Virus record (IMG/VR): IMGVR_UViG_2563366824_000005
Location: 1 to 43,437 of that record
Source of the DNA: a virus
Lineage: Duplodnaviria; Heunggongvirae; Uroviricota; Caudoviricetes
Length of the DNA: 43,437 bases
Strand: one strand, 5' to 3'
Part shown: one piece after another, positions 4,099-37,419 of the stretch
How positions within the stretch are numbered: the stretch's first letter is position 1
Layout of the letters: each line of letters starts with the position of its first letter
Notes under the pieces: generated by a model
What the model was told of the DNA's origin: nothing
Databases searched by the model: none
What the model saw: only the letters and a program-made list of their open reading frames with translations
Made by a program: the position numbers and the translations under genes

Positions 4099-7000
4099 TC
4101 AACTGATACTGATACCGGCTGTTGATTTCTTCATCACGACAACAAGAAGGTCGCTGATACTGGTCGTTGGCGTCCAGTTATTAGCACCATATGAAGAAAC
4201 ATTGAAAGTCAGGGTGACATGACCGTGTCCGGCAGGCATATCAATGACGGATGAAAATACCCTGCTGACATCCGTCGCGGGTTGCTGAAAGATTTCCTGT
4301 CCGTTCTTCAGCACCTGCAGCTTACAGGTTGAATACCAGTATGACTGTTGGTTATTGCTGTTGAAGTTTTCATGCTTACCACCGTGAAACAGAACGGGTG
4401 GGATTACTATCTGACGGTCAAAAGCCTGGTCATCGTACACAGTGACCGTAATTGTACCGCTGGCATAACTGCCATTTCTCGGAAAGGCTTTTCCCACCGT
4501 TTTGACAATATCACCTTCAATCTGGTTGGCAGACAGTTTTCCCAGAATCCGACAGTTCTGGTTAATCGTGACATTATTGAGCGTCCCGGAGTTCGCATTC
4601 ACGTTACCGCTGATATCGGCATTTTTCGCCGTCAGCCGCCCGTCCGGTGTCAGGGAAAATACCGGCGGATTGCCGCCACTGGTAATGGTGGGAGCCGTCA
4701 GATACTTCAGGAACACTTCGTTCATGAATATCTGGTTACCCTGCGCCACAAACATCGGAGTTTCATTCCCGTTTGCCGGGTCAATAAACGCGATACGGTT
4801 AGCGGCAACCAGGAACTGGCTCAGTTTACCTTCCTCCGTATCCTCCATACTAAGGCCAAGCCCCGCGACATAATGCCTGCCGTCTTCGGTCTGCTCAATT
4901 TTGACGCCCCACATGGCATTCCATTTATCGTTGGCGTCCTTCCACTCTTTCGAAAACTCCTCCAGTTTGCTGGCGTTATCCTCCGTCAGCTCGACTTTTT
5001 CCAGCAGCTCCTTGCCGAGATGGGATTCGGTTATCTGGCCTTTGAAAAAATCCAGGTAACCTTCCGCATCATCGCTCGCCCGACCGACAGCCTCCACGAA
5101 TGTCGATTTGCCGACGGTGTTCACACTGCGAACGTAAAAATAATAATCATGACCCGGCTTAATATTGATACTGGCAGCTATCCAGTACAGCGCCGTGCCA
5201 AGATAGCGGGCTGTGGTTTCAACCTGCCTGATATCCGCAATCCGCTTTTCCGAGAACCAGAACTCAAACTGTACCGTCGGATCATAAACGGCAAGATGCG
5301 GCGTGGCGGTTATCTGAAAATAGCCCGGCGTCAGCTCAATCCTCGACGGCGCTGCCGGTGCGGCAATCCGGAACGATACCGATGCCGGATCGCCCTGCTG
5401 CCCCCAGGCATTTGCCGCCCGGACTGTCAGTCTGTAGTTCCCCAGCGCCAGTTGCGTGAAACGGTATGTGGTTTCCGTCGTCCTGGCCGTGCTGACCAGC
5501 CGCTCACTGCCGTCATCCGCTGCCACGGTCAGGCGAAGCATAAAGCTCACGCCCTTCACCACCTTCGGTGTGTCCCAGCGCGCCAGCACCTGATATTCCC
5601 CGCTGTCTGCAGTGACTTCTGCGGTCAGGTGCTGCACCGCTGGCGGCGTGACACCATTCACCGTGCCACTCTGTTCGCCGTCAAAGTGCGCCCCGTTATC
5701 CACGATGGCCTCTTTTTCCGGCACATGCTGCACGGCGGTGATGGCATACGTGCCGTCGTCGTTCTCACGGATACTCACGCAGCGGAACAGTCGCTGGCGC
5801 AGCGTCGGCAGCTTCAGCCCCCATACGCTGTATTCAGCAACACCGTCAGGAACACGGCTCACTTTTACCTTCACGCCGTCGGTGACGGACTGAACCTCCA
5901 CGCTGACCGGATTGCCACTTCCGTCAACCAGGCTTATCAGCGTGGTACCGGAGGATGGCAGCGTGATTTCACGGTCGAGCGTCAGCGTCCGGGTCTGGCT
6001 GTTCACCGCCAGCACGCGACCACCGGTGCTGATACCGGCATAGTCATCATCGCAGATTTCAATAACATCGCCCGGCACATGGCGAAGCCCTTCTGCGCCC
6101 ACGCTGAAATCCACGGTCTGCGTTTCCAGCAGTTCCGTTTTAATCAGCCACAGCCCGGCGCGGTGTGCCTGCCCCCGGCTGGTACAGCCAAAGGCATCCA
6201 TCTTCGTGACATTACGACCGTAACGGGCAATGGCCTGCGTATCTTCAACAAGCTCTGTCGCCGTCTCCCAGCCGTTGTTCGGGTCAATCCAGTTCACCTC
6301 AACGGCATTATGGCGGTCCTTCAGGGCGCTGAAGCTGTAGCGGAACGGCGCGCCATCATCCGGCATCACCACATTACTGCGGTTATAGGTCCACACCTTA
6401 TCCGACGGTCGGTCCTGCACGAACGTCAGCGTCTGTCCGTTCCATACCGGCATACAGCGCATCGCCGAGCAGAAATCACTGAGCACATCCCACGCCTTGC
6501 GCTGTGTGGTCAGGTACGCATTACAGGTGATGCGCGGCTCCGTGCCGCCAAAGCCGTCCGGCACTGACTGGTCGCAGTACTGGCCGATGACATACAGCGC
6601 CCATTTGTCCACATCCGCCGCACCAAGACGTTTCCCCATGCCGTAGCGCGGGTGGGTCAGCATATCCCACAGACACCAGGCCATGTTGTTGCTGTATGCT
6701 GGTTTTAACGTTCCGTCCCAGATACCGCTGTATTGTCGCGTCTGCGGGTTATAGTTCGACGGCACCTGCAGAATGCGCCCGCGAAGATGATAATTACGGC
6801 TCACCTGCTGGCTGCCGAACTGCTCCGAGTCCACCTGTACGCCGACCAGTGCCGTGTTCGGGTAGCACTGTTTCACATCGATGATCTCGGTGTATGACGA
6901 CCAGAGCGTTTTGTTCTGCAGCTGGTCTGTGGTGCTGTCCGGCGTCATCCTGCGCATCCGGATATTGAACGGGCGCGGCGGCAGGTTATCCACCACCACC

Positions 7001-30075: not shown

Positions 30076-30897
30076 TTACCTAGTTACCTTTTTTAACTGC
30101 CGCTCAGCCCATGCTTCTTCAATATCAAACCGGGTCACCAGCGCATCATAGAATTTCTTAACTGTTTTTTCCCATGACGCGCGTGTTATCTGGTTTGTCA
30201 CCTCGCATATAGCATTAAATGCCTCCGTTGATGGTAGCCTTTCATAGCCACGACCACCACAACGCTGGCAGTCTCTGATAACAGGCATACCACGTTTTAC
30301 CGACTCTTCACGATGAATGGCGACACCACGCCCACGGCAATCCTTACAGGCGGTGGAAACCTCACCCTTCCCGCCACACTCCGGACAGGCAACTTTTACC
30401 ACCTCCCTGACTTTTTTCCATTCTTCCCAGTAAGACGGATACACACCTTTCGTACACTTTGCCCATACCGGCGGCTTACCATCCGGATACTGGACCTTGT
30501 TTGTAAAAACTACGCTTTCAATAAATTTTTCCCCATAGCAACAAGGGCACAGCTTTTTACTCGCTGCGCTGCGGGCATAATCCTCAAAAGCGCACGAAGC
30601 CATAATGCGCATCACTACCGGTTTTATTTCTGCCGGAAGTTTTCTCAACGCCGCCACACGATCGCACCGACTGAGTGCATAATCTGCCAGTAATTCTGTT
30701 GCCCGCGCCCTGTCATTCATACTAATGCCCATCTTCCCCAGGAACGCAGAAAACCCCATCTCAGCCCGATTCTGTGTCATGCCCTGCGCGGCCATCACAT
30801 CAGTGATACTCAGCGCATCTTTTGACGTTGAGGCCGATGCATCGGTCAGGCAAGGGGATTTTGGGGAGTAGTATTTCGGTAAATCTTCCAGTTTCAT
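30076..30897 (-). CDS. late-gene antiterminator Q-like protein (Qin QuuQ-type)
   Basis: 273 aa with paired CxxC motifs; positioned between rusA and the late promoter/tRNAs. Confidence 0.75.
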   Translation of the reverse strand: MKLEDLPKYYSPKSPCLTDASASTSKDALSITDVMAAQGMTQNRAEMGFSAFLGKMGISMNDRARATELLADYALSRCDRVAALRKLPAEIKPVVMRIMASCAFEDYARSAASKKLCPCCYGEKFIESVVFTNKVQYPDGKPPVWAKCTKGVYPSYWEEWKKVREVVKVACPECGGKGEVSTACKDCRGRGVAIHREESVKRGMPVIRDCQRCGGRGYERLPSTEAFNAICEVTNQITRASWEKTVKKFYDALVTRFDIEEAWAERQLKKVTR

Positions 30898-31280: not shown

Positions 31281-32330
31281 TTACCCAAGCACGCCAGTTG
31301 CAAAGGCGTGATCAAGAAAACGAAAAATTAAATCAACCTGAGAACCATGCTTTTCTTCGAACGCCAGCGGATCCGCATGAAGCTCGTTGTGATGCTCCCG
31401 ACACAGCGGTAGCGTGAAAATATCGTGAGATTTTGTCCCCATTCCGCCCTGACCATGACCAATCAGGTGATGGGGATCGTCGGCTGGCTTACCACAACAC
31501 GCACACGGCTGTGTCTTCACCCAGCGTGTGTATTTCTCGTTAACCCAGCGGCGACGTTTAGGTCGTTTCATGAAAGATTCCGGAGACTCAGGATCAACGG
31601 CAATGCTGACCACCGTCTTTTCCTGTGGTGGGTTCTGTTGCTGGTGGGTGTGAGGCAGCGGCGCAAGATTTTTTGTGCGCTGTTTCAGTATGCTGGTGGC
31701 GGTCTGCTCTCCCGGTACGATGTCGCTTTCACGGTACATTGAGCGGATTTTTTCCGCACGCAACCCCAGCGAACGACGTAATACCGCTTCCGGTAGCGCG
31801 TCCGCCACCTGATTGCGGACCGCCCACCAGGATAATTCAGCCAGAGATAATTCACGCTCCTGCGTACCGCTTATTGCGTGACCGATGACGTCAATCATCC
31901 ATGCTGACAGGTTTTGATGAGCAACTTGCTCGAGTGATTCGGATGTCTGGTCACGCAGCTGGTTGTCGCAGTGCCAGCACAACACCATTGCGCCGGTACC
32001 ATAACGGTGAATGACGGTTTCGCTGTGATGATAATCGCCGTGTGGCCACTGGCAGGATTTAATATGGCGCAACAGCCAGTCAGACAATGCACCAGCACCA
32101 CCAGCAGCACGAATCACCCGTGCGTTACTGAAAAACGGCAGCAATGTTTTGTCTTCCACCAGCGGCTGGCGAGCGGCAGGAACGACCCCGGACGGCAGAT
32201 TACGCATGCTTTTCGGTTCCGGCTCCACCAGTAACCGGGTATTGTGGAATACCGGCATGGATTCACGGCCCGGCTTAACGATCACCAGCCCGAGTTCCGG
32301 TACCAGAACAGGTCGAAGTAATACCCGCAC
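31281..32330 (-). CDS. DUF968 protein (YdfU-like) with C-terminal HNH-like Cys/His motif
   Basis: 349 aa; CACCGKPADDPHHLIGHGQGG...H motif; same position as ydfU in Qin. Confidence 0.65.
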   Translation of the reverse strand: MRVLLRPVLVPELGLVIVKPGRESMPVFHNTRLLVEPEPKSMRNLPSGVVPAARQPLVEDKTLLPFFSNARVIRAAGGAGALSDWLLRHIKSCQWPHGDYHHSETVIHRYGTGAMVLCWHCDNQLRDQTSESLEQVAHQNLSAWMIDVIGHAISGTQERELSLAELSWWAVRNQVADALPEAVLRRSLGLRAEKIRSMYRESDIVPGEQTATSILKQRTKNLAPLPHTHQQQNPPQEKTVVSIAVDPESPESFMKRPKRRRWVNEKYTRWVKTQPCACCGKPADDPHHLIGHGQGGMGTKSHDIFTLPLCREHHNELHADPLAFEEKHGSQVDLIFRFLDHAFATGVLG

Positions 32331-32331
32331 G

Positions 32332-32610
32332 TTACCTCCAGATGCGTTGCTGGAATGTGCGGGATGGACGCGGTGGGCGTTCGGAGTAAGGCAATCTGAC
32401 TGAGATTATCCAGTGACGGTAGTCGAGGCTAAGGGCTTTTTTAACCTCGTATCCGCGCCTGCGGTAACACTGAATTATCCATTCAGCCTGCTCTTCAGTG
32501 CATGGTGGATGCTGGAACCAGTCCGATTTGAATGCATGAAAACGCCGTCCGCATCTGCTGGCAAAGACGGCAGAATCATCAGAATTGTGTAATTTGGTAT
32601 CGTGCGCCAT
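32332..32610 (-). CDS. Rem-like small protein
   Basis: 92 aa from first ATG (MAHDTKLHNSDDSAVF...); track ORF starts at an upstream TTG; position matches rem in Qin. Confidence 0.45.
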   Translation of the reverse strand: MAHDTKLHNSDDSAVFASRCGRRFHAFKSDWFQHPPCTEEQAEWIIQCYRRRGYEVKKALSLDYRHWIISVRLPYSERPPRPSRTFQQRIWR

Positions 32611-33068
32611 CGGTTGTCTCTGCTGGCGCAGCAGGTGCCAGTTGTTCAGGCTGGCGTATAAAGTATAAATAAACTGGTTCCAGTGTAAAGCCCCTACATT
32701 AATGGAATAAAAGTCAAACAACAGATTGTTGGGATAAACACAACGCTTATTATTAAAAGCGATTAGATAAATTAAATTTTAATGTTATGCAATTTTACCA
32801 GATCATCATAACATCTCGTTTGAAACCACCGAAACAACAACCATATCAATATTGATTATGTTAAAGTGAGTAAATATGGAAAACAACAAATCTGCACATT
32901 ACGCTCCTTTTTTATCTGTGATACTTTTTGTTTTATGCTGTGTGTGGGCATTATTTTTATAAAAATATTCACAGATAAAATAAACCCGCCGAAGCGGGTT
33001 AAGTGCGGGTGCATTGAGGATGCCTGACACATCAGAGGTGGCGAGGGATTTCTCCCTCGCCGGGTCTC

Positions 33069-33224
33069 TTACTCCTCAGGTTCGTAAACTGTGAAGACAG
33101 CGACCTCCGTCTGGCCGGTTCGGATTCGTACCTCGCAGAGGTCTTTCCTCGTTACCAGTGCCGTCACTATGACGGTTAAACAGATGACGATCAGGGCGAT
33201 TAACATCGCCTTTTGCTGCTTCAT
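33069..33224 (-). CDS. hokD: Hok-family type I toxin (HokD/RelF-like)
   Basis: 51 aa MKQQKAMLIALIVICLTVIVTALVTRKDLCEVRIRTGQTEVAVFTAYEPEE; AAGGAG SD; below track length cut-off. Confidence 0.85.
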   Translation of the reverse strand: MKQQKAMLIALIVICLTVIVTALVTRKDLCEVRIRTGQTEVAVFTVYEPEE

Positions 33225-33481
33225 AGCCTGCTTCTCCTTGACCTTTCGGTCCGTAAGAGGCTAATCTCTATGTGTCGCATAGATATGGCCTCAGATTAAT
33301 GTTAAACGTCTTGCAGGACGCGTAATGTTACCTGGGGCTTTTCTCTATCTGCCGTTGGTGTTCATGCCCGAGGCAGATAGCCTCAAGCACCCGCAGTCAT
33401 TCTACTTAACTAAGATTTCCCCGCAAACCGTTTTTGTCCAGCACAATAAATATCCAACTAAACCAATGGAGTTCGCTGTAT

Positions 33482-33661
33482 TTACCGCCAGTATTCAATG
33501 CACATGACCGCCATGAACACCCCTAAAAAAAGGGCATTTATATATCCAAATATTAATATCAAAACATCAACTTTTTCCATATACCTTGCTGTGAAGATGA
33601 TGGGCATACATGATACGAACAACCAGAACGCAACAAACAAAAACTGCAATGCGTTTTTCAT
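33482..33661 (-). CDS. hypothetical small two-helix membrane protein (59 aa)
   Basis: strong AGGAGG SD 4 nt before ATG 33661; two hydrophobic helices; AT-rich context. Confidence 0.4.
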   Translation of the reverse strand: MKNALQFLFVAFWLFVSCMPIIFTARYMEKVDVLILIFGYINALFLGVFMAVMCIEYWR

Positions 33662-34199
33662 TATTCCTCCTACAATCAATGTGCAATTACATTTAAACAC
33701 ACCTCAATTTGGCCGGACATATAAATATCTAAACTAGAAAAAATCACTTACATAGCGTTACAAACTCTTTAGTCTAAAGGTTCATCGTAAAACATTCCCC
33801 ATACTTATCAGTCCGTTCCGCGCCAGGTAGCTTATTGCCTTATCTGGCAACCTATAATCAGGTTTCCGCTTTTTCAGTTGGCTGGTCGTTTAACCGACAT
33901 AGTTAACCCATTAATCTAGTTGCCGGATGTTGGTGGATTTTCGCGTTTTAGTTGTTCATAAAAGTGCACAGCTTTAACCAGTTCTTCTGATGTAACCAGG
34001 GCTGGTGAGGCAGTGAATAAGGCCTGAATTTGATAGTTCGGCCTGTCGTTACAATCCTCTTTTTTCGGTACATATTTCCAGTCAACAGACCACTACTTCT
34101 CCTGAAAGTCCGTAACGCCTTTTTTCACGTAGCGATATCGCCATGCCACTGGTTTTGCTTGCCCCGCCGTTTCATACCCTTCCTGATAATTAATCTCGC

Positions 34200-34376
34200 T
34201 CATTCATCGCCCCACTCATCACAATATGCTTCGACCGGATTTTTTCCTGCTTCATAATCATCACGCCATGCTTCAGCATCAGCAGCACTGCCACCACGTA
34301 ACTCTGCATAGTCCATTAACAGTTCATGCCATTTTTCAAAACTGACGTTGTATTTAGTTGAACCAAAATCAGCCAT
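34200..34376 (-). CDS. hypothetical acidic small protein (58 aa)
   Basis: MADFGSTKYNVSFEKWHELLMDYAELRGG...; start overlaps stop of upstream acidic ORF (AATGGCTGA); below track cut-off. Confidence 0.4.
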   Translation of the reverse strand: MADFGSTKYNVSFEKWHELLMDYAELRGGSAADAEAWRDDYEAGKNPVEAYCDEWGDE

Positions 34377-34551
34377 TTTGCTCTTCCTCTTCGTCTTTTA
34401 TTTCGTGATATGAGTAATTGCAGTAGTTAAAGAAAATATCTTTTGCTTCGTCATGTATTTCATCAGGCGTCGCATCAGCATCCACTTCGAATTCATCCTC
34501 GAAATCTCCACCAGCCATTCCCGTTTCAATAATTATTTTGAACTTTCGCAT
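34369..34551 (-). CDS. hypothetical highly acidic small protein (60 aa)
   Basis: track ORF; about one third Asp/Glu (FEDEFEVDADATPDEIHDE...KDEEEEQNG). Confidence 0.45.
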   Translation of the reverse strand: MRKFKIIIETGMAGGDFEDEFEVDADATPDEIHDEAKDIFFNYCNYSYHEIKDEEEEQNG

Positions 34552-34644
34552 TTCACTACCGCCCTTTCGGGTGGCCTCCTGCTGTTCTGAGGGTGCAGAA
34601 ATCCCTCCGGTTAAGGATTAAATTTTTAACAGTGCTAAATTTAA

Positions 34645-34960
34645 TTATTCAGTTTTGGATTTTGTCACCCTGCGTATCCGCGCTTTCCCGTTACGCTCAA
34701 TCTGAATTAGCTTTTCTATATTTTTTCGCCTTTCCCGTTCCTCCTGGCGCAAGAGCCTTACATCATCTGCCAGTCTGGTTTCTCTTTTCGCCACAGAGAG
34801 CATCCAGTCAAATGGCTCCACAACTGCACCGCAGATTTTACAGCGGACCTGACGCTCTTTTTCGTCAACCCGGACAGAAGCGTGATGGCAATATGGTCTT
34901 TCCGATGGCTCATAAAGAAAATTAACCTGATTACGAGGGTCATCCTCTTTTATCGGAAAT
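34645..34960 (-). pseudogene. zinc-ribbon-like ORF lacking a canonical start codon (possible frameshifted gene)
   Basis: open frame ...PYCHHASVRVDEKERQVRCKICGAVVEPFDW... ending at TAA 34645-34647, with no in-frame ATG/GTG/TTG near its 5' end; ATG-initiated 61-aa ORF 34758-34943 is in another frame. Confidence 0.25.
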
Positions 34961-35058
34961 AAAACGATATTGCTTAACTAATCCTCTGGTTTTATTTCCA
35001 TGCTCCTCTCCTTTGATGCGAATGCCAGCGGCAATTGAAGCCTGATAGCTAATTTCAC

Positions 35059-35481
35059 TCACAGTACCGCCTCCTGAAAATTACCCTGATAGAAAGCCAG
35101 TACACGCTGCATAGCTTCGCTCTTCCGGCACTCGCGACAGATTATATTCAGGCGCCTGTCGTAGCGGCGTATTTCTCCGTCTGGTAATGACCAGATTAGG
35201 TCCGGATCAACCGCAGATGGTTTCTTCGGCTTTGCCCTTGAGAGCTTTTTACGGGCATTTTGCCAGTCCTTACGCGCCTGTTCAGACGGGAATAACCCGT
35301 AACCAGAGTTGTATACATCGCCACTGGCAACCAGCTCTCTGGCCAGAACGCTCATCAGATATCTTGTTGCCCCAGTTTTAGTTTCCAGTTGTCGTAACGT
35401 CTCGCGCCCACTCTGGCGTACGAGTTCAACAACCTGCCCTTTAATTTTTTCCCGCTCTTCTTGTGTAAAAACTTTTGCCAC
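35059..35481 (-). CDS. hypothetical protein (140 aa), possibly DNA-binding, immediately downstream of replication gene
   Basis: track ORF; basic C-terminal half with CRECRK motif; occupies the lambda P position but is not P-like. Confidence 0.45.
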   Translation of the reverse strand: MAKVFTQEEREKIKGQVVELVRQSGRETLRQLETKTGATRYLMSVLARELVASGDVYNSGYGLFPSEQARKDWQNARKKLSRAKPKKPSAVDPDLIWSLPDGEIRRYDRRLNIICRECRKSEAMQRVLAFYQGNFQEAVL

Positions 35482-35521
35482 AAGCCCTCCTGAAAATTAC
35501 CTCATGACCAGAAATTAACAC

Positions 35522-36598
35522 TTACCCCCTGAAGCCCGGCGGAATTTCGTTATCCGGTTCAGAAATATGATTCACACAACGCTGGTTGTTCGTGCCGCTT
35601 ACCGGGAGCAACCAGGGGTTCTCAAAATTCCGGTCCGGTCCAAAAAACGTCGTCGCTCGCTGAACAAATTCCGTTCCCGTTTTCCCGGTAGCCGCCAAGT
35701 ATCTTGCGTAACGCCTCACGCCATCCAGCATGGCCTCTGGTGGCACCCCCTCGCGTAATCTGGCCTTCCAGGCACTGAAAGCGGATTTCTTCGGGTTTGC
35801 TCCGGCACGCAACGGGTACTCCCGCCAGACCTGTTCGAACACATCCGGATAATCCACTCGTCCCACAGACTGCCCGGTGTTTTCCGGGACTACCCGATCG
35901 GCTTCCCGCTGAATGGCGGAATCGGCTTCGGGCTGCTGCAGTTGGTGTGATGGCTCCGGCCTTGCGGTCATCACCTGCTGCACAGCGCCCGAATCGGCTT
36001 TCAGCGCATACGCTGAATCGGCTTCCGGTGTCGTGCCTGCTGGCTGACCAAGATTGACGGTCTGAACATCCCCTGCCTGGTTCGTGGCGTTTTTTACGCC
36101 ATGGACCATAGTGTTTTGATCTTCTTGATCTGTATCTTTATCTGTATCTTTATCTGTCGTGACTCGTCGTGACATGTGCGTGACATTTCGTGACGCGCCG
36201 TGACAATCGCCATTTTGTTCCCGCTTTCTTTCCCTCTCTCGCTGCGCCCTCTTGCGCTCTGCAGGAGATTTTGCGGTTTGCGAAATATTGCCGTTGTCCT
36301 CTTTAAGCACCTGGCGTTTTTCCCATCCAGTGATTAAATCACCATCAAGTACCCGCCCCTGCATCGTCTGCAAAATTGAATCAATTACCTCTTCTGTCAC
36401 GTCGAGCGCACTTGCCAAATCTTCTGTCGTGACATCAATGTGACCTCGCGTGACATTTCGTGACGCGCTCACCAGGAGGTGGATATACACTGCCATCACT
36501 GTTGCAATTGGCTGCCCTGACACCCTGGCAATTGTTCGCCACTTAGGGTCATTTGGCATGTCATGCCATAATCTGAGCCAGGCGTTAGCCATACTCAC
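35522..36598 (-). CDS. putative replication initiation protein (lambda O analogue) carrying internal iterons
   Basis: 358 aa; N-terminal region resembles phage replisome-organiser/DUF1376-type domains (from memory); linker encoded by iteron repeats; position after cII-like gene. Confidence 0.6.
   Translation of the reverse strand: MSMANAWLRLWHDMPNDPKWRTIARVSGQPIATVMAVYIHLLVSASRNVTRGHIDVTTEDLASALDVTEEVIDSILQTMQGRVLDGDLITGWEKRQVLKEDNGNISQTAKSPAERKRAQRERERKREQNGDCHGASRNVTHMSRRVTTDKDTDKDTDQEDQNTMVHGVKNATNQAGDVQTVNLGQPAGTTPEADSAYALKADSGAVQQVMTARPEPSHQLQQPEADSAIQREADRVVPENTGQSVGRVDYPDVFEQVWREYPLRAGANPKKSAFSAWKARLREGVPPEAMLDGVRRYARYLAATGKTGTEFVQRATTFFGPDRNFENPWLLPVSGTNNQRCVNHISEPDNEIPPGFRG
36128..36204. 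repeat. candidate origin iterons: five direct CGTGAC repeats at 10-11 bp spacing plus 12-bp tandem tctgtatcttta x2
   Basis: CGTGAC at 36158, 36168, 36179, 36189, 36199; tandem units at 36128-36151. Confidence 0.55.
36406..36464. repeat. second iteron-like cluster (CGTGAC/GTCACG repeats)
   Basis: GTCACG at 36406, CGTGAC at 36428, 36449, 36459, GTGAC at 36440; segment cgtgacatttcgtgacgcgc duplicated from the first cluster. Confidence 0.45.
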
Positions 36599-36663: not shown

Positions 36664-37089
36664 TCAATGCACAGCCACAATATTTCCTGCAGGGCCACCA
36701 CGATTCATCTGGTTGAAACCAGCGATCGCCACTGCGACAAAATCATCAGCGTCTCTCACCAGTCGTTCCCGCGTCTCCACTAGTTCCCGAAAATAGGCTG
36801 AGCTATGACTGCGCATTCGGGCCACCAGCAGAGGTGGCATTGCTTTTTCGATAGCTGGTAACAACGCCTGAATTTTTTTAACCGCATCAGGGGTGTCTTT
36901 CTCCACCCAGCGGAAAATTTTCTGAGTATTGCGAGCCAGGGCTTCCGGATGGCTGTCGTCATACAGTTCCGGGAACGTCATTCCCAGCTCGAAATACGCT
37001 TTGGTAATTTTCACAGCCGGTACTTTTTCGCCGTCCGGATGCGCCCAGGCATTCATCGCCATGCGGATGTGTTCATGCTTGATTTTCAT
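36664..37089 (-). CDS. YdaT-like protein (proposed cII analogue)
   Basis: 141 aa starting MKIKHEHI...; sits between cro-like and O-like genes; family recalled from memory. Confidence 0.5.
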   Translation of the reverse strand: MKIKHEHIRMAMNAWAHPDGEKVPAVKITKAYFELGMTFPELYDDSHPEALARNTQKIFRWVEKDTPDAVKKIQALLPAIEKAMPPLLVARMRSHSSAYFRELVETRERLVRDADDFVAVAIAGFNQMNRGGPAGNIVAVH

Positions 37090-37340
37090 GAATCAACTCC
37101 CATCAGCTTTTTCGTAGTAGTTTTATTCCTGCCAATAGTTAAAATTGCATCGGCAGAAAATAATCCGTTTGATGCAAGAGCGATTTTTTCAGCGTAATTT
37201 GTTTCGCCGGTATATTCTGTGCGAGGCAATTTTCCGTTATCCATCCATTTATAGATTGCTCTTTGGCTGACACCACAAACGTCGGCCACAACAGCAACGC
37301 GAACAGTTTTGATTACATCTTCAAGTGTTTTCTGGTACAT
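37086..37340 (-). CDS. Cro-like HTH regulator
   Basis: 84 aa from MYQKTLEDVIKTVRVAVVADVCGVSQRAIYKWMDNGKLP... (HTH); divergent from repressor; GAGGGTGA SD. Confidence 0.65.
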   Translation of the reverse strand: MYQKTLEDVIKTVRVAVVADVCGVSQRAIYKWMDNGKLPRTEYTGETNYAEKIALASNGLFSADAILTIGRNKTTTKKLMGVDS

Positions 37341-37419
37341 ATCACCCTCACAATGTGAACTTTGAGTACATGCTATAACAGAACTGACAGTACATTCAAG
37401 AGCGAATATCATTGAACTT
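37341..37419. promoter_or_regulatory. divergent promoter/operator region between cro-like and repressor genes
   Basis: 79-bp spacer with GTACAT motifs at 37366 and 37391 and a third at 37334 in the cro start; repressor ATG lacks an SD (possibly leaderless like lambda cI). Confidence 0.4.

Follow-up and report, generated by a model that had tools for sequence, protein, structure and literature searches.

What do two small, overlapping and extremely acidic genes contribute to a lambdoid prophage? A sequence-only reading of the 43,437-nucleotide stretch of DNA analyzed here (the window), which is a Qin/Rac-like lambdoid prophage of E. coli, had described the genes as a translationally coupled pair in the nin-like region and suggested that their products are DNA mimics or anti-defence factors. 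The anatomy and the position of the genes described in that reading stand, whereas the pairing does not hold up well, and the two proteins are better treated separately.

Anatomy and setting of the two genes

Two adjacent ORFs of 60 and 58 amino acids, referred to as A and B, are present on the minus strand of the window as had been described (Table 1). Gene A encodes 19 Asp and Glu residues (32%), which give its product a net charge of -14 and a pI of 4.06. The product of gene B contains 15 such residues (26%) and has a net charge of -10 and a pI of 4.17. The negative charge density per residue is -0.23 for A and -0.17 for B. When 60 non-overlapping ORFs with a minimum length of 50 amino acids were chosen greedily from the whole window, A and B came out as the two most acidic, in agreement with the extreme Asp/Glu richness noted before. 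The local GC content of the A-B segment is 40%, compared to 51% for the window.

The genes overlap start-to-stop, as claimed. The 3' end of A reads ...CAA AAT GGC TGA, and the ATG of B is embedded in that string, resulting in the 8-nucleotide overlap ATGGCTGA. At the sequence level, this is the overlap of a downstream start with an upstream stop that is characteristic of translational coupling; B also has a Shine-Dalgarno-like run of its own. This purine run, GAGGAAGAGCAAA, coincides with codons E55-E57 and Q58 of the poly-Glu tail of A plus the first base of N59. It is the putative ribosome-binding site of B, and part of the extreme charge of A, that of its disordered tail, may be a by-product of encoding the initiation sequence of B. 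In the copy of B from a SPI-7-type ICE, the near-identical string GAGGTAGAGCAAA precedes the ATG, and the upstream gene is different. Because the ICE keeps this string after a different gene, the B cassette appears to carry its own initiation region, and a recombination boundary probably lies just upstream of the purine run. A split Shine-Dalgarno sequence like that of T4 gene 38 was considered for A, with AGGAGG about 25 nucleotides upstream of the ATG and a GNRA-loop hairpin after it. It was rejected, because the 111-nucleotide leader folds no better than shuffled sequence (z = -0.80).

The order of genes on the minus strand, from the replication genes to Q, bears out the assignment of A and B to a nin-like region of the early operon. 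On the minus strand, the stretch from the replication genes to A and B contains no site resembling a promoter or terminator. The two genes are therefore probably transcribed as part of the early-right (pR) transcript, downstream of the replication genes. The overlap and the lack of an intervening promoter-like or terminator-like site are as expected of the proposed translational coupling, but the notion of a pair is weakened by the occurrence of the two families mostly apart, as described below. An Rfam scan of positions 32500-35600 identified sok alone, and no RNA element in or beside A and B.

Table 1 Features of the window around genes A and B, listed in the reading direction of the minus strand
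Feature	Position	Strand	Details
cro-like gene	37086-37412	minus	
YdaT/cII-like gene	36664-37089	minus	
O-like replication initiator	35522-36598	minus	
DUF977/Ren-like gene	35059-35481	minus	
137-codon gene with nonsense mutation	34645-35058	minus	directly upstream of A
Gene A	34369-34551	minus	60 aa; MRKFKIIIETGMAGGDFEDEFEVDADATPDEIHDEAKDIFFNYCNYSYHEIKDEEEEQNG; from ORF list
Shine-Dalgarno-like purine run	34377-34389	minus	GAGGAAGAGCAAA; adjoins B ATG; read from sequence
A stop (TGA)/B start (ATG) overlap	34369-34376	minus	8 nt; ATGGCTGA; read from sequence
Gene B	34200-34376	minus	58 aa; MADFGSTKYNVSFEKWHELLMDYAELRGGSAADAEAWRDDYEAGKNPVEAYCDEWGDE; from ORF list
DUF551-like pseudogene	33780-34203	minus	directly downstream of B
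AT-rich segment	33400-33850		GC 0.36
Hydrophobic ORF	33482-33700	minus	72 aa; MFKCNCTLIVGGIMKNALQFLFVAFWLF...
hok/sok	33069-33392	minus	
Rfam sok match	33222-33392	minus	100.8 bits; gathering score 59
Hok ORF	33069-33224	minus	51 aa
Terminator-like hairpin	33000-32983	minus	AACCCGCTTCGGCGGGTT; T-rich tail follows
AT-rich segment	32650-33000	minus	GC 0.32
DUF968 gene	31281-32330	minus	
RusA and Q	30076-30897	minus	

Both genes flanking A and B in the window are pseudogenes, which leaves A and B as intact genes between two decayed neighbors. The 137-codon gene upstream of A is interrupted by a nonsense mutation at codon 27 and is intact in phage vB_EcoS-640R1 (96% identical). Its product contains a CxxC-based, zinc-ribbon-like motif and matches PHROG 1621, and RefSeq lists a shortened product of 108 amino acids. 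The DUF551-type gene downstream overlaps the stop codon of B, begins with MSEINYQEG, and matches PHROG 660; it encodes 171 amino acids in another strain, and several stop codons break the copy in the window. The hok/sok type I toxin-antitoxin locus further downstream is complete, and its Hok gene is named hokD by RefSeq in an identical prophage. The AT-rich segment between hok/sok and the DUF551 remnant contains a strongly hydrophobic ORF, and the region is annotated inconsistently, on either strand, in other records. A second, very AT-rich segment is positioned downstream of hok and upstream of rem-like and DUF968 genes, and a strong terminator-like hairpin is found at its hok-proximal end.

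Families, predicted folds, and distribution

Gene A matches Pfam DUF7167 (PF23768) with a score of 52.6 bits (cut-off 24.4), its residues 2-53 aligning to profile positions 1-60 of 60, and PHROG 1997 over the full length (E 1.3e-29). Judged by these profile matches, A is a full-length member of DUF7167/PHROG 1997, both already catalogued and uncharacterized. RefSeq contains an identical protein, WP_001224679.1, named 'DUF7167 family protein'. The AlphaFold2 model of A, calculated from a 42-sequence alignment, has a mean pLDDT of 88.8. The predicted fold is composed of a beta-hairpin (strands 2-10 and 15-23), a helix (residues 29-43), and the disordered, low-confidence acidic tail KDEEEEQNG. 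Net charges of 42 DUF7167 members, those from Enterococcus phages included, range from -16 to -7. The positions that are acidic in at least 80% of the members include E31, E35, D38, E18, and E22. In the predicted fold, the helix presents E31, E35, and D38 on a single side, and E18 and E22 are at alternating positions of strand 2. According to helix and strand geometry, the conserved acidic positions should form exposed stripes.

Homologues of A occupy variable early accessory slots beside Ea22-like, DUF551, recombination, Dam, and theta-subunit genes. Phages of Citrobacter, Klebsiella, and Enterococcus, as well as P22-like prophages, carry A but lack B; virulent Enterococcus Herelleviridae and Klebsiella Guernseyvirinae are among the carriers. 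In the Enterococcus Herelleviridae, A is downstream of an ASCH/DUF3850 gene. Klebsiella copies come from both prophage-like and Guernseyvirinae phages. In Guernseyvirinae, A is positioned upstream of the gene for a Gp2.5-like annealing protein and overlaps a DUF2800/PD-(D/E)XK nuclease gene at the start of the latter. The nuclease has 454 amino acids, and the DUF7167 gene is located at positions 2501-2671 and 2501-2668 of two such records (L004 and L008, respectively). One Guernseyvirinae record mislabels the 55-amino-acid DUF7167 protein as 'PD-(D/E)XK phosphodiesterase'. In P22-like and lambdoid pL regions, A is near Erf-SSB-Dam, GamL-exonuclease-RecT, and theta-subunit genes. In Citrobacter prophages, an Ea22-like gene precedes A, and a 59-amino-acid gene that follows A was considered as a divergent B and ruled out, as there is no homology between them. 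A was also considered as a remote homologue of DUF1187; the N-termini look alike, but the hhalign probability is only 0.15.

Gene B belongs to a different family. It matches PHROG 519 (E 5.1e-22), with residues 1-58 aligned to profile positions 76-137 of 143, and none of the Pfam or NCBIfam families. On the basis of this match, B is a member of PHROG 519, which is already catalogued and has no known function. Since B covers only part of the profile, some PHROG 519 members carry additional N-terminal sequence; the B homologues from phage Vi01 and from IncU-like and IncT plasmids match the same region. An identical protein is listed in RefSeq as a 'hypothetical protein' (WP_000753064.1). The family is small, with 74 representatives at E ≤0.001 among 1.84 billion proteins. 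The AlphaFold2 model of B (mean pLDDT 86.3, 42-sequence alignment) is a three-helix bundle with helices formed by residues 13-27, 34-42, and 47-55, and the median net charge of 42 family members is -10.

B is present in every class of mobile element examined. About 200 phage records contain B, and 182 of the homologues are less than 60% identical to it and originate mostly from virulent Ackermannviridae that infect Salmonella, Klebsiella, and Escherichia. In Salmonella phage Vi01, the homologue is Vi01_151c, directly after the major capsid gene. Prophage copies are located near int/xis or in nin regions, Enterobacter prophages carry B directly after an Ea22-like gene, and B also occurs in distant temperate-phage-like metagenomic contigs. 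In the SPI-7-type ICE, B starts 6 nucleotides after a 'ParE family toxin-like' gene, and Ea22-like genes come next. Four database proteins (P0046, P0052, P0062, and P0142) are versions of B with in-frame internal deletions, 31-45 amino acids long, that keep both termini, which suggests recurrent deletion between short repeats, or decay.

Homologues of B are carried by 554 plasmids, 516 of which are conjugative. Among the carriers are plasmids of the IncI2 type with sizes of about 60 kb, for example pFORC82_3 with mcr-1, and large IncU-like and IncT plasmids, in which B is inside long one-directional arrays of small genes without known function. On pFORC82_3, B overlaps an unrelated upstream DUF1187 gene by the identical 8 nucleotides ATGGCTGA (DUF1187 at 5166-5381 and B at 4997-5173 of record L014). 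The IncI2 operon is organized in the order CaiF/GrlA-like regulator, DUF1187, B, SPFH, NfeD, and type IV secretion genes. The database protein P0123 (127 amino acids) is a fusion of DUF1187 and B. Location of B in the IncI2 leading region was considered, and is not clearly the case on pFORC82_3: about 19.5 kb separate B from nikA and the presumed oriT, and B lies on the far side of repA, at the head of the SPFH/NfeD/type IV secretion operon. The genes ydaF and ydaG of the E. coli K-12 Rac prophage were rejected as homologues of DUF1187 and B, as YdaF belongs to DUF1391 and the locus is unrelated.

Prevalence, selection, and decay of the A-B cassette

The A-B DNA is present in 2114-2162 of 5426 complete E. 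coli genomes (~40%), and both genes are found in 1743-1752 of the genomes with a match. Public databases already contain the exact A and B proteins, each on 1000 or more contigs. In Stx2a phages, for example ArgO145, A and B overlap in the same way, but the cassette is located in the pL/Ea22 region instead of nin. This difference from the pR nin location in the window indicates moron-like mobility of the cassette. A and B each commonly fill a variable slot between Ea22-like and DUF551 genes. From the comparison of these contexts, we conclude that A and B are probably two independent mobile modules from unrelated families, the pairing of which is evolutionarily shallow, and their adjacency in E. 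coli can be explained by the recent shared descent of one cassette. The A-B segment is also found, at 95% nucleotide identity, in the record PP818812.1, 'Actinobacillus phage vB_Apl-pPE4' (L012), where about 720 bp around it are 91% identical. This phage has Hok and Ea22-like genes as well, and its recorded host is Actinobacillus pleuropneumoniae; the host assignment looks doubtful.

Six intact A-B copies with nucleotide identities of 92.6-100% to the copy in the window were used to determine dN/dS. The ratio is 0.04-0.19 for A. For B it is 0.00-0.23 in nine of the twelve pairs that give a ratio and 0.35-0.58 in the remaining three. The dN/dS values, mostly of 0.02-0.2, together with the confident AlphaFold2 folds and the matches to existing families, indicate that A and B are real genes.

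Other copies have been inactivated. Cryptic Qin remnants and the deposited phage PhiR42_1 have in common nonsense mutations at codon 37 of A and codon 37 of B, and in both the B start is changed from ATG to GTG. The identical inactivating mutations point to one ancestral decay event that has spread widely. The decayed A-B copies (L023 3001-3352, L024 3001-3352, and L011 2901-3252) come from Qin-type remnants of several E. coli strains and from PhiR42_1, a phage from ECOR13 that is deposited as 'complete'. About 700 records fall in the 80-90% identity band. In one Rac-type record, A is a pseudogene and B is intact. A and B are thus accessory and dispensable for the phage, and a host that carries a dead prophage does not maintain them. 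The nonsense mutations shared by the cryptic Qin remnants indicate that it is the active element that profits from A and B, and that the host has not domesticated them.

Candidate functions and relation to known systems

Homology searches place A and B in uncharacterized families and link them to no known mimic, anti-defence protein, or solved structure; an anti-defence function is plausible for both. Sequence and profile searches of the PDB with A and B returned nothing significant. The matches from a Foldseek comparison with viral models were all uncharacterized phage proteins, among them proteins of phAPEC8 and Lactococcus phage 949. The PADLOC defence-system models do not match A or B at E values up to 0.1. 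In a search by identifier, which is a weak test, PF23768, DUF7167, phrog_519, and phrog_1997 are absent from the ten supplementary files of the EVADES catalogue of 268 anti-defence proteins. Literature searches by family name, accession, and peptide string found no paper mentioning A or B, and the supplement of an accessory-gene screen likewise does not mention them.

Conserved acidity is a family-wide trait of both A and B. It is quite possible that, independently of each other, the two proteins act as acidic decoys or inhibitors, each directed at a basic protein of the host or its defences that binds nucleic acids. A and B would be produced early, after the entry or induction of the element, and each would act alone and stoichiometrically. 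The decoy would bind and block the basic nucleic-acid-binding surface of its target, and the outcome would be an anti-defence or host-takeover function of the general DNA-mimic kind. The case is stronger for B than for A because B is present in every mobile-element class examined. The distribution of B among phages, plasmids, ICEs, and prophages is as expected of a function useful to any incoming DNA. We more tentatively consider a specific form of this proposal, in which the B family is a broad-spectrum establishment or anti-defence factor. In temperate lambdoids, virulent Ackermannviridae, SPI-7-type ICEs, and conjugative plasmids of the IncI2, IncT, and IncU-like types, B, with its acidic bundle of about 55 amino acids, could serve as a decoy for nucleic acid, aimed at a DNA-binding protein conserved in enterobacteria, either a defence or a nucleoid protein. 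A could be another decoy, independent of B and different in fold, whose range extends to Gram-positive phages.

Several other explanations share part of this evidence. That A and B constitute an obligate two-component unit, either a heterodimer or an effector with its partner, with stoichiometry set by translational coupling, would agree with the 8-nucleotide stop/start overlap, with the joint movement of the genes between pR nin and pL/Ea22 at 92-98% nucleotide identity, with the presence of both in 1752 of 2114 matching E. coli genomes, and with their joint inactivation in Qin remnants. However, such a unit is quite unlikely, as the families are unrelated and mostly apart. B is without A in Ackermannviridae, the 554 plasmids, the ICE, and Enterobacter prophages, and A is without B in the Citrobacter, Klebsiella, and Enterococcus phages and P22-like prophages. 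Furthermore, on plasmids B overlaps another upstream gene in the identical manner, one record combines an A pseudogene with an intact B, net charges of -14 and -10 make electrostatically poor partners, and recent descent from one cassette accounts for the co-occurrence in E. coli. We regard it as very unlikely that B is an antitoxin-like neutralizer of a ParE/RelE-type toxin. The position of B in the ICE, 6 nucleotides after the 'ParE family toxin-like' gene, the label 'antitoxin' given to a B homologue in one Kuttervirus record, and the small size and acidity that B shares with many antitoxins would fit this function. Nevertheless, no toxin gene adjoins B in the window or in the other contexts examined, B matches no Pfam or NCBIfam antitoxin family, and the Kuttervirus label is given without stated evidence. 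The ICE copy is 89% identical to the phage copy at the DNA level; because of this identity, the start of the shared sequence at the B ribosome-binding site, and the adjacent Ea22-like genes, the ICE block appears to be a recent capture from a phage. Decay of both flanking genes in the window, and of A and B themselves in some prophages, could indicate that the ORFs are non-functional leftovers or annotation noise, but purifying selection in the intact copies, the conservation of the families across distant phages, and the confident fold predictions make this extremely improbable.

Roles in the biology of the phage itself were also weighed. Small exo-xis-region genes of lambda and Stx phages have reported roles in development and host physiology. 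The location of the Stx2a cassette among Ea22-like genes in the pL region, and the many prophages in which an Ead/Ea22-like gene is the direct upstream neighbor of A or B, with a DUF551 gene downstream, would be consistent with modulation of phage development or host physiology by A and B, such as the lysis-lysogeny decision, the efficiency of induction, or the cell cycle. It is nonetheless unlikely that they are such modulators, since B is abundant in strictly virulent Ackermannviridae and on conjugative plasmids, which make no lysis-lysogeny decision, and A is found in virulent Enterococcus Herelleviridae and Klebsiella Guernseyvirinae. In addition, in a tblastn search of a phage collection, lambda is absent from all 19 matches of A and from the best 40 of the 200 matches of B. 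A function as accessory factors of phage DNA metabolism, in which A could regulate or partner a nuclease or recombinase, is similarly improbable. The overlap of A with the nuclease gene and the nearby Gp2.5-like gene in Guernseyvirinae, the Erf-SSB-Dam or GamL-exonuclease-RecT modules near A in P22-like and lambdoid prophages, and the position of A and B downstream of replication genes in the window speak for it. However, the neighbors of A vary by lineage (ASCH/DUF3850 in Enterococcus, Ea22-like in Citrobacter) and include no conserved partner, early accessory regions adjoin recombination genes by default, and nothing comparable is seen for B.

The window adds no new sequence, as identical proteins are already in RefSeq. 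What is new here is the independence of the two modules, the family-wide acidity, the breadth of elements that carry B, and the dispensability and decay of the genes in cryptic prophages. If either protein is an anti-defence factor, it is a very common one, present in about 40% of complete E. coli genomes, and Stx2a-converting phages are among its carriers. For B, the proposed function, if true, would bear on plasmid spread as well as on phage host range: conjugative plasmids with the gene number in the hundreds, and the IncI2 plasmid examined, which also carries mcr-1, is one of them. The wide range of mobile elements that contain B makes it a sensible choice for screens of anti-defence or establishment functions; the case for A is weaker.

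A does not differ in any respect from Pfam DUF7167/PHROG 1997, a family without a known function. AcrIE9 and AcrIE10 are a widespread pair of small co-encoded proteins from mobile elements of Enterobacterales; AcrIE9 is a double-stranded DNA-binding protein that is found mostly on plasmids and rarely in prophages (PMC12248084). In contrast, A and B are acidic, abundant in prophages, and mostly unpaired outside E. coli. The identification of A and B with AcrIE9 and AcrIE10 was rejected on the published description, because AcrIE9 is a DNA-binding and plasmid-centered protein.

Known DNA mimics are small, are expressed early, and have a very high density of negative charge. Their surface carboxylates imitate the way phosphates are spaced in the DNA backbone, often within a dimer, and they compete with DNA by occupying the DNA-binding site of a target. 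A and B resemble T7 Ocr, ArdA, T7 Gp5.9, lambda Gam, Ugi, phi29 p56, AcrIIA4, and AcrIF2 in size, predicted early expression, and charge density, and the unusually high acidic density that marks DNA mimics is found in both. According to the predicted folds, conserved acidic positions, such as those described above for A, should lie on exposed faces. No similarity in sequence or fold was found between A or B and Ocr, ArdA, Gam, Gp5.9, Ugi, p56, or the Acr mimics. In their genomic position, A and B are comparable to the nin and exo-xis/ea genes of lambda. They occupy the same slots, either between the replication genes and Q or between the recombination genes and xis-int, and are likewise dispensable, mosaic, small, and often overlapping with their neighbors. 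Homology of A or B to the Nin, Orf, or Ea proteins of lambda was not detected. B differs from the nin and ea genes of lambda in being common in virulent phages and on conjugative plasmids, too.
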